Shown here one piece after another: positions 4,292 through 53,776 of a stretch of 64,000 bases of DNA (positions within the stretch are counted from its first letter, which is position 1; the number at the start of each line of letters is the position of its first letter). The stretch is from Eledone cirrhosa (Eukaryota), in NCBI GenBank assembly GCA_964016885.1, contig OZ024753.1, positions 2,914,001 through 2,978,000 on the forward strand, given 5' to 3'. A program made the translations under genes and the position numbers. The notes under the pieces are model-generated. The model was not told the origin of the DNA. It was given only the letters and a program-made list of their open reading frames with translations, and searched no databases.

Positions 4292-4331
4292 CTGAGCTGA
4301 AGATCCGCTAAGGTGAAACAATTGTTCTCGG
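4292..4331 (+). ncRNA. Minimal type-I hammerhead ribozyme motif
   Basis: CTGAG-CTGAAGA-T CC GCTAA GG T-GAAAC AATT GT T-CTCGG. Core CUGANGA/GAAA, stem I ctgag/ctcgg, palindromic stem III ACAATTGT, GUU site; (TA)n on both sides. Confidence 0.7.
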
Positions 4332-4760
4332 TATGGTGAACTAACTGTTGTGTAACCACTTCTATATATCTATATATATATATATATATATACATCATCA
4401 TCATCATCATTTAACATCAATTTTCCCTGTTTAGTAAGTTACATGCACACACACACATACGCACAAACCATGTTAGCATGGAAGATAGACGTTAAATGAT
4501 GATGATATATATATATATATATGATAATAAGTTAGTGCTCAACGGGTGAGTTCAGCCATCAGGACTAACTTTTCATTATACATACACTCTACTTTCCCAA
4601 GTATTGAGTACTCAGCTGAACATGGTCTTTCCAGTCTAGACAGGTAACTCCCAATCTATCTATTTATCTACACCTCTCTCTCACTCACTATATATATATA
4701 TATAGAGAGAGAGAGAATGCATATATATATATATGTGTGTATGTGTGTATATAAATATAT

Positions 4761-5345
4761 ATCATCATCATCACCGTTTTACGTCCGTTCTTCCACGCTA
4801 GCATGGGTTAGACGGGTTGTCCTGTTGTGGGCAGTGTCTGGTCAGCTGACCATGCCTTGCTCATACAGGAACTGATTTGGCTTGATTTCTACAGCTGGAT
4901 GCCCTTCCTAACACCAACCTCATTTACAGCGAGTGCTGGGTGCTTTTTTCCGTGGCGCCTACACGTCCACTTTACAGTGTGGGCTGGGTGCTTTTTTGCT
5001 GTGGCACCTCCACAACCACCTTGCAGTGGGAGGGTGTGGGGGCATATTGCCTATATGCTTCAGCTTGTACCCATGGGAGGTCGGGTACTCTGTATTACTG
5101 CGTGACGCCAGAGGTCACAGTCGTATGTCATCGCCTTTGAGAGGTGTAATTGGGTAAGGTCAGCTTTTATCACCTCATCCCAGGTCATCTTGGGTCTCCC
5201 CACTCCGCGGTTTCCATCGACTTCTAGTGCTCTGCACCTTTTTATGCAGCTGTCATCCTTCATACGCATCACATGTCCATACAAACGCAACTGCCTCTCC
5301 TGCACACAGCATTTGATTCCTCTTATGCTCAGTCTCTCTCTCAAT
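4761..5345 (-). mobile_element. RTE-clade LINE 3' ORF fragment fused to a SINE-like body and (GAT)n tail
   Basis: ORF 5060-5461 contains ELRERLSIRGI..VQERQLRLYGHVMRM..GNRGVGRPKMTW (RTE C-terminus). Downstream on the minus strand is the shared SINE tail ...gcgtggaagaacggacgtaaaacggtgatgat. Confidence 0.85.
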
Positions 5346-5374
5346 TCATATATATATATGCTGTAATCTGGCTG

Positions 5375-5565
5375 TGTAGGTAACACGGTAAAAACCTTCC
5401 AGTCCACACTGTAAATGTGGTTGGTGTTAGTAAGGGCATCCAGCCGTAGAAAACCCACCATACAGCCCTATACGAGCAGGACAACCAATCTTGCCTGAAG
5501 TGGGAAAACTCCCGTCCAAACCCATGCAAGCGTGGAAGATGGACGTTAAACGATGATGATGATGA
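5375..5565 (+). mobile_element. 5'-truncated SINE/RTE-tail element
   Basis: gtccacactgtaaatgtggttggtgttagtaagggcatccagccgtagaaa...gcgtggaagatggacgttaaacgatgatgat; related copies at 18462-18625(-), 33200-33560(+) and 42190-42460(+). Confidence 0.8.
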
Positions 5566-5624
5566 TATATATATATATATATATATATATATATATGATA
5601 CATATATTCCTAAATACTAATGGT

Positions 5625-5945
5625 AAATAGATAGATATGTTTCTTTTATTTGCCACTAGGGCATCAAAAGTGGGACAAGTACAAAGGGGGGAGTTTACAC
5701 AAAAAGGCGTCCTCAATAAGGAGGAGGCAATAACAAAATATAAAAATAAAATAAGATATAACAAAAAATAAAATTTTTAACAAAATCCTCAATAGAGAGG
5801 AGGCGCCTTGGGGGGTCGCACACACCCCCGAAAAAAGTGTGCAACCCTTCTCCTCAGGAGCACAGAGAAGGGGTGCTCCCTTGGTCTTTCATCTTCCTCA
5901 CCTATAGTCTGATGTAGAGTGAAGGCCCATTCACACGGGCCATTA
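5625..5945 (-). mobile_element. 3' end of Tx1-like LINE
   Basis: Reverse complement shares atggcccgtgtgaatgggcct and the terminus gtggcaaataaaagaaa..atctatc with 60170-61070. Confidence 0.7.
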
Positions 5946-6259
5946 GACAGACAAATAGATAGACAGACAGACAGACAGAGAGGCAATGCCAGAAAAATTA
6001 CTAGCTAAACTCTAGAATGTGTTAGAGTATCTGCCAGGCTTACAACAATATCAATAGTCTTTAAAACTGGAACAACTGTTAATTATTTTGGCAAAAAATG
6101 GTTGTAGTAATATATTTATTTCCTTCATTTCAAATGATTTGCACTAAGATGAAATGAATTGTTTTCAACAAGAGATTAAAACTTTATTTTGCCAGAATAA
6201 TAATATTAAAAAACTTGATAAATAGTTGATTCCTTAGGGTATTAACTGCATTGATATTA

Positions 6260-50818: not shown

Positions 50819-50958
50819 GGAGAGGAGAGAGAGAGAGAGAGAGAGAGAGAGAGAGAGAGAGAGAGAGAAGAGAGAGAGAGAGAGAGAGAGAGAGAGAGAG
50901 AGAGAGAGAGAGAGAGAGAGAGAGAGAGAGAGAGGGGGGGAGAGTGTGAGAGAGAGAG
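50819..50958. repeat. (GA)n microsatellite
   Basis: Directly visible. Confidence 0.98.
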
Positions 50959-51703
50959 TAAAATCAAATACATTGTTAAAGAAATATATAGCGTTGAATG
51001 TTTCATTTGACATTTATTTAAGACCAGTGCTGTGATAGAATTATTTTGATAATTAATATCATTATTATTACTATTATTATTAGTGGTATCAAACGTGTTG
51101 GTTAAGGTGGTTGATAACTTGTATTTACAATGTCTTCAAATTCGTTAATAGAAAAAAAAATTGCTTTTTATTTTTATTCAACAGAACATAACAACAGTCA
51201 AACTTCAGCAGAATAAATAGGTGATATTAACTATAGTATGCTACTAGTTAATCTAACCCTTTTCATACCAAACTGCCTGAAGCTGCCTTTGGTTCTTTGA
51301 CATTAAGCTGCTTATTTCATAGTAGGGGTGTATATGATGGCATATACATTGTGTTATGTACAATAAATACAAGAGTCTTGCTGTAAAGGTTATTGTTTCA
51401 TATTGTCTATTTTTGTCCAACAACATTCAATCACAATGTTATGTAAGAATCATTGTTAGGTTCCAAACACTAGCTGAATAATGAGTGAGAACATTGATTG
51501 CATTACTAAATTCCTCCAAATTCTTGATTATTTTCATGAGAAATGTGGTAATGAAATAGCTAAAGACAGAATTTTCAGCAATGTGATGCAGTAATACAGA
51601 AGATAAAACTTCCCATGGGTACAGGCTAAAGCTGAAGCATATATACAGTATGCCCCACCGCATCCACCCTCCAACTGTATAGTGGTTGTGTCATTTTCTT
51701 GAA

Positions 51704-52008
51704 AAAAAGCAGCCAGCCCACACTGTAAAGTAGTCATGTAGGTGTCATGACAAAAAGCAGCCAGCCCACACTGTAAAGTGGTCATGTAGGTGTCATGACA
51801 AAAAGCAGCCAGCCCACACTGTGAAGTGGTCATGTAGGTGTCATGACAAAAAGCAGCCAGCCCACACTGTAAAGTAGTCATGTAGGTGTCATGACAAAAA
51901 GCAGCCAGCCCACACTGTAAAGTGGTCATGTAGGTGTCATGACAAAAAGCAGCCAGCCCACACTGTAAAGTGGTCATGTAGGTGTCATGACAAAAAGCAC
52001 CCAGTCCA
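51704..52008 (+). repeat. 48-bp tandem repeat (6 copies) derived from a SINE internal module
   Basis: Unit aaaaagcagccagcccacactgtaaagtggtcatgtaggtgtcatgac; the same module occurs 2-3 times in the 4761 and 33200 elements. Confidence 0.92.
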
Positions 52009-53045
52009 CAAAATAAAGTACAAGTTCATGGCAGTGGACTGGAAGAATTGTTAGAGCATCAGATGAGATGTGTTATGACACCTGTTCTAGTATCATATAT
52101 TCTGAGTTCAAATTCCAGTGATGGCCAGGGCTATCATCCAACTATGGTTCCACAACTCAAAATGAAAGCTGTAACAAACGAAGGAGGACTGTGGTCATCT
52201 GATACTGCAGTCAAACAATGATGATGATTAATAGGAGATTAGTAAATATAGGTTTGTTAAGAGGATTAACCCTTTAGCATTTACACTACTCTATATTTAC
52301 TATTGTATTTTTGCAGTAAAGGCTTTACCTCACATAATTATCTCATATGATATCAAATCTATGAGATTTTGATGTTATTTATGTTCAGAACAATACCTTA
52401 ATCTAGGTATAGGCGGCCAGTTACAGCCAGTTTGAACAGAAAGAGGTGAGAGAGTTCTAGCCGGGTGTGGCCAGTTTCATTGCTAAAGAGTTAAATGCCT
52501 TTGCTATGAGTAAGAGGATATTTCTAACATTGCAGATATGAACTCTGATTAGTTGCTCTCATCTTGCCTCAGTTGGCCTGATTAACAACAGGTTTAACAT
52601 AGATCAGAGATAGGTGTTAGAAAGACCCCAAAGAAAGAAAAAAGACTGCCTGAGTGTGGACAGAACAAAAATAGTCAAATAATACTACTTTAGCTAAGAT
52701 GGATAATTGACAGAGAAAAACAGGTGTTGTTAATGTAGAAATGTAACAAGTGGCTTGGAAATTTATCTTTAAATCTCAATTATATCATGATTAATTACCA
52801 AACAGAATTAAAATAAAAGCATCAATCATAAAATCAGAGTTCATAAGTAATGAAATATAAACAATCGTGTTCCATATTTCACAAAGATTAATTTACCGTT
52901 TTTAATTATTCTATTATGCCATTCATCAATGCATGTCTCACTTACTGTTAAAGTTTAATTTGATAACTTTAGAATCATTTCAAACATGAGTTACTTGATC
53001 ATATCTATTTCTGGTTAAACATTTCTACAATTTCTTCTTTAAATA

Positions 53046-53362
53046 AAGTAGAACCTCAGTTCATGAACACCTCGCACCATGACAACTTGGTTCATGAATA
53101 CTTTTTCCGAACATAAAACGTTTCAGTTGACGAATGGTGTCTTGAGTAATAAACACACATGCTGACAACAACAGTTGCCGACAAGCTTGAAATATTGGTA
53201 GAAAAGTGTCACTTGCTGTGTAGTAAGTTACTATCATGATCTATCTGTCTTTTACAATCATTCAGTTACTGTATTTTTCTCTCAATAAATCGTTTTGGAA
53301 AAATAGTTTCGGTTTATGAACATTTCAGATGACAAATAGCCTGCAGGAATGAATTAAGTTCT
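53046..53362. mobile_element. Decayed Tigger/pogo-like MITE
   Basis: Left end aagtagaacctcagttcatgaac resembles CAGTGGAACCTCGGTT..GAAC TIRs; the right subterminal ttcggtttatgaac..gaattaagttc is truncated. Confidence 0.55.
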
Positions 53363-53740
53363 CTTTTATTTCTTAGTTATACCTAACATATTTAATTTAT
53401 ATAAAATAAATATGATCATATATGATAAACATGGTTGTCTTAAGCATTAGTAATATTTTCAGCTCTTCTGCCTTGTTGCTGATACAATTTGAAAATGTAT
53501 TATTAAAGCTAGTGAATCAGTATTAATAAACTATTATACTATGGTATTAAATAGGCATTCTCATGTTTGTTTATTCAGACACATATACACACATACAAAC
53601 ATATATATATCTATATATGTGTGTGTGTCTATGTGTGTGTGTAGGTAAAAGGTAAACAGAAATAACAAAAATAACAAAACAAACGGCACAGTACATGGAA
53701 GAAATATATTAGTTTAATGCTTGAAATAGCAGGAAGAGAG

Positions 53741-53776
53741 TCTTAACGTGTCAGACACTAGTTCTTCATCAGAAGA
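53741..53776 (-). ncRNA. Decayed minimal hammerhead motif
   Basis: Minus strand: TCTT-CTGATGA-AGA ACTAGTG TCT-GACAC GT T-AAGA; one core substitution (GAAA to GACA). Confidence 0.5.

Follow-up and report, generated by a model that had tools for sequence, protein, structure and literature searches.

Introduction

Within the Penelope-like elements (PLEs), the Hydra clade has been reported to carry canonical hammerhead ribozymes and to insert into (TA)n tracts, and the supplement to that report lists Hydra-1_Obim with both features (PMC8557442). The same source draws PLEs with an inverted copy and a tail. Minimal PLE hammerheads have been described as type I cores in the pseudo-long terminal repeats (pLTRs), mostly as single motifs tied to truncated PLEs, with thousands per genome (PMC4209133). 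For Poseidon of Anolis, two initiation sites of the reverse transcriptase (RT) and nicking of two strands were found in vitro (PMC11167929), and non-LTR retrozymes combine type I hammerheads, copies without open reading frames (ORFs) and an ancestry in PLE pLTRs (PMC7229834; bioRxiv 10.64898/2026.07.22.740005). The origin of the head-to-head inverted ends of PLEs, the use of sense or antisense template and the role of the hammerhead are called open in PMC3846280, PMC8557442, and PMC11167929. Here we describe hammerhead-bearing modules in a stretch of 64,000 nucleotides from Eledone cirrhosa, positions 2,914,001-2,978,000 of contig OZ024753.1 in the 3.0-Gb assembly GCA_964016885.1. This stretch is referred to as the window, and all genome-wide counts cover the same assembly. 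We consider it rather probable that the modules are pieces of the pLTRs of many Hydra-clade families inserted in (TA)n, the short ones likely being run-off cDNAs copied to the capped 5' end of the RNA from two internal priming sites.

Hammerhead Motifs in the Window

A scan for the hammerhead core together with stems I-III gave six matches in the window, at 4297(+), 8200(-), 19048(-), 36917(-), 23836(-) and 24171(+). In dinucleotide-shuffled controls a single match was found in 2 of 150 whole-window shuffles and in 6 of 150 shuffles within 200-nt blocks, and never more than one, the mean expectation being 0.01-0.04. The bare core, with no stems required, occurred 10 times in the window versus 3.6-4.6 times in the shuffles, and a relaxed scan added a core at 23658(-) with a stem II of 50 nt. 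Seven window motifs thus have the CUGANGA...GAAA...UH core and the three stems of a type I hammerhead. A sequence-only reading had placed five intact hammerheads at 4292, 8166, 19005, 23585 and 36862. All were present at correct coordinates by the structured and relaxed scans, and the comparison with shuffled sequence which that reading had proposed put the window far above its controls. Its list of decayed or half copies stood in part: the motif at 53741 is decayed and the one at 23402 is half a core, because short copies of its family start within stem II, but 23787 is intact with an 8-bp stem I, and the deviating core at 24372 is a U4A core found family-wide.

Families were given arbitrary letters: A for the module at 4292, B for 8166, C for 19005, D1 for 36862, D2 for 23787, E for 23585, F for 23402, G for 24372 and H for 53741. 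D4 is a relative of D1 used in the counts, and L-numbers denote individual genomic loci compared with the window modules. Stem III is a short palindrome in families A, D, E, and H; families C, F, and G have a long one. Among the best 150 of 205 Rfam matches, there was one to HH9, at 8146-8216 with 24.3 bits, and no hammerhead in the window reached the gathering score (52 for HH9). In 1.17 Mb of selected loci, 328 hammerhead contexts were found versus 2 in the complement control. A (TA)5 or longer tract lay within 200 nt of all 11 motif positions examined, versus 29% of random positions, which bears out the expected association with (TA)n, though the 11 positions are clustered and amount to fewer than 11 independent ones.

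Parent Elements and Clade

Long copies of most families lead into same-strand ORFs with RT and GIY-YIG endonuclease domains. In L011 (B) and L153 (C) the hammerhead flanks the ORF on both sides, and L153 has an unbroken ORF of 713 aa. The endonuclease lies 0.2-1.7 kb upstream of the module in L134, L135, L136, and L149 (F), L019 and L023 (A), L209-L213 (G) and L171/L172 (D2), and the DNA between endonuclease and module is common to independent loci. This is the build of endonuclease-bearing (EN+) PLEs, with a single ORF of RT and C-terminal GIY-YIG and with pLTRs carrying a hammerhead, an inverted 5' copy and an optional tail. The window modules of families A, B, C, D2, F, and G match pLTRs of such elements at 89-99%: A at 91-99% to L023, where a GIY-YIG piece ends ~230 nt upstream; B at 90-92% to both pLTRs of the full-length L011 and at 98.8% to L008; C at 97-98.5% to L153, the window tail being in frame with the L153 ORF; D2 at 89% to L171, whose element has a GIY-YIG ORF ~1.7 kb upstream; F at 92-96% to L134; and G at 98.6% to L209, with GIY-YIG ~1 kb upstream. 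The D1 module is only 76-83% identical to its ORF-adjacent or long relatives L165 and L262, and no ORF link was found for H, for the small extra modules, or for E in 24+12 loci.

The origin from PLE termini suggested earlier therefore holds, and the proposed linking of flanks to PLE ORFs was achieved for six families. The modules are ORF-less in the window, as had been stated, but elsewhere the same sequences are the pLTRs of ORF-bearing copies, and the idea of a non-autonomous system found no support in these six families, as their junctions also vary per copy.

On protein motifs, the ORF-linked window modules belong to Hydra-clade elements. The RWK-type motif reads RWR in C, F, B, and D4 and the DKT motif is present in C, F, and D4, the other loci being without that region or unmatched. 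A CxCX5C linker was seen in C, F, G, B, and D2, with no CCHH motif, and CxxC-E-N-CxH in C, F, G, B, D2, and A. Between the IVY and YIG motifs there is one cysteine in F, G, and D2, and there are two, widely spaced, in C. The Neptune clade, with its CX2-5CxxC linker and CCHH motif, was rejected on these grounds. Atlas neighbours of the L213 ORF, with scores of 0.93-0.95, carried GIY-YIG (27 and 21%) and RVT_1 (13%); a sequence search of PDB gave no meaningful match. The Hydra clade and Hydra-1_Obim share with our elements the C-terminal GIY-YIG, the RWK-type and DKT motifs, the CxCX5C linker, and the CxxC and CxH around E and N, and the clade further has canonical hammerheads, (TA)n insertion, an inverted 5' copy and an optional tail, and occurs in Octopus (PMC8557442). 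By comparison, that source gives few families and one Octopus Hydra family, tails of 30-40 nt and units below 3 kb, whereas tails here measure 70-100 nt and units reach ~6 kb. Of the suggestion that the modules target or generate (TA)n, targeting stands and is already published for Hydra, but generating does not. The system had also been thought undescribed in cephalopods, which the hammerhead and (TA)n preference of Hydra-1_Obim contradict, although six motifs from window families are absent from the supplement of PMC8557442.

Two further observations concern the ORFs. In the family B ORF at L011:3788-4940 (+), RT and endonuclease are separated by a long insert rich in asparagine, of the kind described in rotifer PLEs (PMC3846280). 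A second, different type of PLE ORF, in which no Hydra linker was seen, lies at L014:3616-4999 (-) and L007:2735-3101.

Insertion Anatomy

In the usual insertion, (TA)n is followed by an inverted arm of the short-end type, which meets at a junction the direct arm; this bears a tail of 70-100 nt and leads into (TA)n again. The two 3' ends are precise and about equally common, in agreement with the two RT initiation sites and the two-strand nicking of Poseidon in vitro (PMC11167929), and the inverted copy and tail agree with those drawn for PLEs (PMC8557442). Among 30 loci of family F the first TA run begins at 39-40 in 13 and at 119-120 in another 13, and among 30 of family C at 63-64 in 11 and at 131-134 in 10. 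Hairpin copies are predicted to fold as one long stem. Junctions vary among F copies (first 100 of 6,140 matches) and among C loci, and in neither set was there a combination of fixed ends and junction common to the copies, as an element with its own master would need. Given these copy-specific junctions and the identity of the pLTRs with those of ORF-bearing copies, no short master element is evident. A single master hairpin element had been suggested by an early query and was rejected by unselected samples, the identical C junction having been selected by the query itself. In some F junctions (G000:C1:43259602, 44860438, 55270253 and L084) 8-15 T or A stand between the arms, as would result from untemplated tailing of cDNA ends.

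Sharp 5' Boundary at a Putative Start Site

Arm lengths are bimodal, and in three families (C, D4/D1, F) most short arms end at an initiator 29-33 nt below a TATA-like box; TATA, CCAAT and initiator are what we take these upstream motifs to be from general knowledge. Extension was measured against ten reference arms for F and C and twelve for D, where lengths are underestimated if no long copy of the subfamily was among the references; values for A, B, and E come from a separate run. Of 77 family F arms, 61 stop no more than 24 nt from GAAA and 11 extend for at least 221 nt. Genome-wide, 29,695 F matches reach the A of the initiator-like AGTCC (+1), 4,903 in one subfamily reach 7 nt past +1, and 5,839 reach ~35 nt beyond. 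For family C, there were 12,938 matches genome-wide versus 3,313 with the TATA box, and a sample of 30 held 18 long and 12 short arms, all of the latter ending from -3 to +3. In the corresponding D4/D1 sample 20 arms were short and 10 long; six have their end precisely on the A of TCACT, and the interval from -3 up to the long class is empty. All eight long copies measured have the TATA-like box at -29 to -33, and the four that belong to C and F also have CCAAT, at -84 to -87. The sequences at the putative +1 are AGATTCC (C), ACTACC (D4) and AGTCCAG (F), and the full-length L153 (L244) starts at the same boundary. A 3' splice site at CCCAG in family C was judged an unlikely cause of the boundary, as upstream exon sequence was not seen in the short arms. 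A rotifer pLTR has a TATA box and a TCACT initiator (PMC3846280), and Drosophila Penelope has a TATA-less internal promoter (PMC2377424).

A refined version of the earlier non-autonomous idea would lead to the same boundary, if truncated copies that keep their promoter made short capped RNAs mobilised in trans, with most short modules stemming from such non-autonomous sources. The 3,313 C and 5,839 F copies noted above retain the promoter region, pLTRs alone were enough for trans integration in the rotifer case (PMC3846280), the added G described below is equally predicted, and E and H have no ORF link. The short modules themselves, however, lose the TATA and CCAAT boxes, which disqualifies them as the source. 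Identity between short arms and ORF-bearing copies reaches 97-99%, and the junctions differ per copy. We regard this origin as unlikely.

Extra Non-Templated G Before the Putative Start

Bases preceding +1 were tallied by hand for the first 100 listed matches of each pattern, counting non-template bases only. In family C they were 79 G, 10 A, and 11 T (100 of 2,192), in family F 86 G and 14 A (100 of 6,740 purine cases), and in D4 42 G, 8 A, and 50 T (100 of 326). An internal D4 control position gave 12 G, 18 A, and 70 T (100 of 131), and Fisher tests of G:A against it gave p values from 7e-5 to 4e-7. Long copies carry C or T at this place. The G occurs on both hairpin arms in L280-L283, L361, and L370, and in some arms it follows directly after (TA)n. 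It could be assigned without ambiguity in 12 of 20 C loci (a set that includes 4 chosen as two-arm cases), 13 of 23 F arms and only ~4 of 11 D4 loci. Untemplated G in L1 and SVA has been read as reverse transcription of the cap (PMC4859970). The shared stop point together with the extra G suggests that short copies likely arose by copying RNA to its capped start. The open literature searched yielded no account of PLE arms that end at a start site or carry a G from the cap; subscription papers, Repbase/Dfam entries and supplements may hold one.

Ordinary 5' truncation, in which the RT stalls at the hammerhead structure and G comes from microhomology joining or terminal transferase activity, is a quite improbable source of these ends. 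Most PLE insertions are 5' truncated (bioRxiv 10.64898/2026.07.22.740005), microhomology could explain ~40-60% of the G cases, and the ends of families A and E are diffuse. Yet the boundary takes a different place relative to the ribozyme in each family (within stem II for F, at stem I for C, 56-82 nt upstream for D) and always falls on an initiator ~30 nt below a TATA-like box, the control site has no G excess, and stalling does not account for G on both arms and right after (TA)n. Self-priming on an antisense template, as proposed for head-to-head hairpins in PMC3846280, does account for palindromic junctions. It fails to predict that both arms end at the sense initiator with an added G, or that one arm is of the tail-end and the other of the short-end type, and we consider it very improbable.

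Cut Site and Core Variants

Judged from their ends, the copies derive from RNA that was uncut at the hammerhead. A non-template base stood at the cut site in just 176 C arms versus 2,192 at +1, and 30 of these cut-site arms, when read, proved to be 16 point mutants, 5 cases of stem-I microhomology and 9 true starts. Templates starting at the cut site were accordingly rejected, with none in 26 F and 14 C incidental arms and few genome-wide. An end-to-end jump from the cap to the cut end was also rejected, as only 10 F junctions from cut end to start exist genome-wide, 3 of them exact.

These junction counts likewise speak against a retrozyme cycle, in which monomers released by the hammerhead would form circles and return to the genome in tandem. 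Local tandems were seen in a few places (three F copies in L152, L014, and four D4 matches near G000:C5:32.48 Mb), and an excess of ~2,600 forward-strand C matches could be an array. The window is without the tandem monomers that define non-LTR retrozymes, its copies being single arms or head-to-head hairpins, so the retrozyme-like character once suggested for it was not confirmed; moreover, arms do not begin at the cut site, and in hairpin copies the ribozyme would be locked up in the long stem. We find this cycle hardly credible here.

Minimum-energy folds, which are predictions as is cleavage itself, recover the three stems only in part. Work from 2017 reportedly dealt with dimeric minimal hammerheads. 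PLE hammerheads are weak or protein-assisted in vitro (PMC11167929, PMC4209133). The complete core of family F is the U3-A8 variant, known from Schistosoma PLEs (PMC4209133), and since its start site lies within stem II, about four fifths of F arms are without the 5' half of the hammerhead. In family G the U4A core is fixed though copies are 97-98% identical; 11 of 12 share the window sequence and one is further changed. U4C is the sole U4 change mentioned in the relevant parts of PMC3088659, as weakly active.

Proposed Origin of the Short Copies

Family membership, two fixed 3' ends, the boundary in C, D4/D1, and F, the G excess and the copy-specific junctions are observed. We suggest the following course. 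From an RNA polymerase II promoter in the pLTR, transcription of a capped RNA would begin at the hammerhead, a little above it or within it. Acting as a dimer, the RT-endonuclease would nick both strands of (TA)n, one cDNA beginning at the tail end and another at the short end. When priming falls on the 5' repeat copy, both cDNAs would reach the cap within ~60-190 nt and be joined head to head; priming on the 3' repeat copy would give the long, ORF-bearing copies. The hammerhead would be a passenger by virtue of its place between start site and priming sites, and templates would be uncut there.

Minus-strand strong-stop DNA of LTR elements is a comparable short cDNA, primed close to the 5' end of the RNA and extended as far as the cap. 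In our case, by contrast, priming would be by nicked target DNA and the product stays in the genome, any strand transfer being hypothetical.

Several points weigh against this course of events. The RNA start and its cap are deduced from DNA, the G control is one position in one family, the matches listed and the pattern-picked loci all come from the first contigs, and the remaining G cases are ambiguous, as the base may have come from the opposite arm. No sharp boundary is seen in family A (8-55 nt), that of E is broad, the B sample is thin at 7 arms, and the TATA-like box of F differs among subfamilies and overlaps stem II. As to the clade, the assignment is by motif, and likeness to Hydra-1_Obim was judged by eye; Pfam at its cut-offs named 0 of 7 ORFs, GIY-YIG having an E of 0.012 on L153.

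[quoted passage not shown] Family F would fit, because its start lies inside stem II and only the 3' copy folds a full ribozyme. We hold this reading to be doubtful; if true, it gives the PLE hammerhead a role and explains head-to-head arms and pLTR regeneration together.

Genome-Wide Abundance

The expectation of many distinct families in very high number was borne out. One generic sub-pattern had 19,603 exact matches versus 784 for the reversed control; exact counts were 35,299 for the D group pattern and 12,938 for one C subfamily, and these three non-overlapping patterns combined gave ~67,000 full-core matches. Patterns of the 3' half gave 27,336 (F) and 28,397 (C) matches, and family E 596. 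These counts are of arms, each hairpin contributing two. Hammerhead types in the selected loci number ~20 or more, and copies of some run to tens of thousands. A second abundant U3-A8 type (core TTGAAAA, stem III CCGG) occurred in 14 contexts among the selected loci. In two C patterns forward exceed reverse matches by ~2,300-2,600, other C patterns being balanced, possibly reflecting one large, retrozyme-like tandem array. In L104, L109-L111, L117, and L125 a decayed C-type module lies inside another repeat with identical flanks.

Modules and Other Features of the Window

The modules are listed in Table 1. The family C hairpin has a predicted fold of -110 kcal/mol as a single hairpin, and its plus arm is without stem I and bears the tail.

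Table 1. Hammerhead-related modules and PLE remnants in the window.
Feature	Position	Strand	Details
Family A single arm, short end; type I hammerhead	4293..4370	+	core 4297, predicted cut after 4326
Family B hammerhead arm joined to ~25 nt of oppositely oriented tail	8107..8280	-	arm 8107-8257, core 8200
Family C hairpin, 61-nt perfect inverted arms	18989..19184	+	minus arm with full hammerhead, core 19048, reaches putative +1
Family F hairpin	23284..23521	+	plus arm starts at 23384, the putative +1 inside stem II; 3' half core only
Family E hammerhead, 50-nt stem II, and inverted tail piece at ~23680-23724	23534..23724	-	core 23658
Family D2 arm, intact hammerhead	23739..23961	-	core 23836; runs beyond putative +1 to TATA-like box at 23955
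Extra hammerhead, 41-nt stem II, overlooked by the sequence-only reading	24138..24276	+	core 24171; one relative shown, L150
Family G arm, fixed U4A core (CAGAAGA)	24329..24624	-	stem lengths by eye: 5, 4, and 5 bp
Module of like build, 33-nt inverted arms, GAAA...UU half core	24633..24773	+	hammerhead 5' half not identified
Family D1 arm and tail, intact hammerhead	36718..36951	-	core 36917
Older module; long-stem-II hammerhead seen in relatives	42516..42737	+	
Family H minimal hammerhead, GAAA decayed to GACA versus relatives	53642..53805	-	
3' fragment of H-like module without core	26784..26894	+	
Tail fragment related to family G	7630..7701	-	
Tail fragment of another repeat, preceded by hammerhead-like motif in relatives	56308..56379	+	
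Decayed PLE RT remnant, frameshifts and stops	1952..2552	+	tblastn E 3e-16 to RT piece of L011

At 23253-24790 at least six modules of different families stand within 1.5 kb, each adjoining (TA)n, and like clusters in many other loci suggest repeated insertion into the same tracts. A likely exon bounded by AG...GT was noticed at 36381-36504 (-) and would encode the beginning of an immunoglobulin I-set domain, by a Pfam match short of the cut-off (E 0.047). The intact D1 hammerhead is ~370 nt upstream on the same strand and may lie sense within an intron. Remnants of other LINE-type elements occur at 60122-60867 and 5060-5467, minisatellites at 34985-35582 and 51700-52010 (31-bp and 48-bp units), and several high-copy SINE-like repeats are scattered across the window.

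Comparison with Known Systems and Significance

Hammerheads and their presence in octopus PLEs are not new, and the Hydra-type elements are a known clade doing known things. The minimal PLE hammerheads of PMC4209133 resemble those described here also in opposite-strand pairs 100-700 bp apart and in the U3-A8 core variant. They differ in number, with 2,000-9,000 per genome there and at least ~67,000 here, and in that several of our families have a long stem III or a stem II of 40-60 nt; a start-site or cap signature is not mentioned in the relevant parts of that paper. As up to 120,000 such motifs are reported for axolotl (PMC7229834; bioRxiv 10.64898/2026.07.22.740005), the copy number found here, though high, has been surpassed. 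No octopus or cephalopod appears in the text of the latter, and in the O. vulgaris study with 31 recently active PLE families the word ribozyme is absent from the text seen (PMC13282606). Non-LTR retrozymes are tandem units yielding circular RNA, unlike the dispersed arms and hairpins here. The proposed course resembles that of Poseidon in vitro, where the tail is delimited by two internal sites of RT initiation, AT-rich DNA is nicked on both strands, a dimer is predicted, hammerhead cleavage is unnecessary and there are no reads at the cut site; it belongs to another clade, and the relevant parts of that work do not address what becomes of cDNA that reaches the 5' end of the RNA, or how inverted arms arise (PMC11167929).

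What the present analysis adds is indirect evidence, from DNA, that both arms of short insertions may copy a capped sense RNA to its start. Each family offers junctions by the thousand that arose independently, and the genome has an intact ORF, so that the individual steps of insertion are open to counting in DNA. PLE ends may account for many of the short repeats of octopus now classed as unknown or SINE, and if the proposed reading is true, the cap-ended short copies are a clue to the insertion mechanism of Penelope-like elements.

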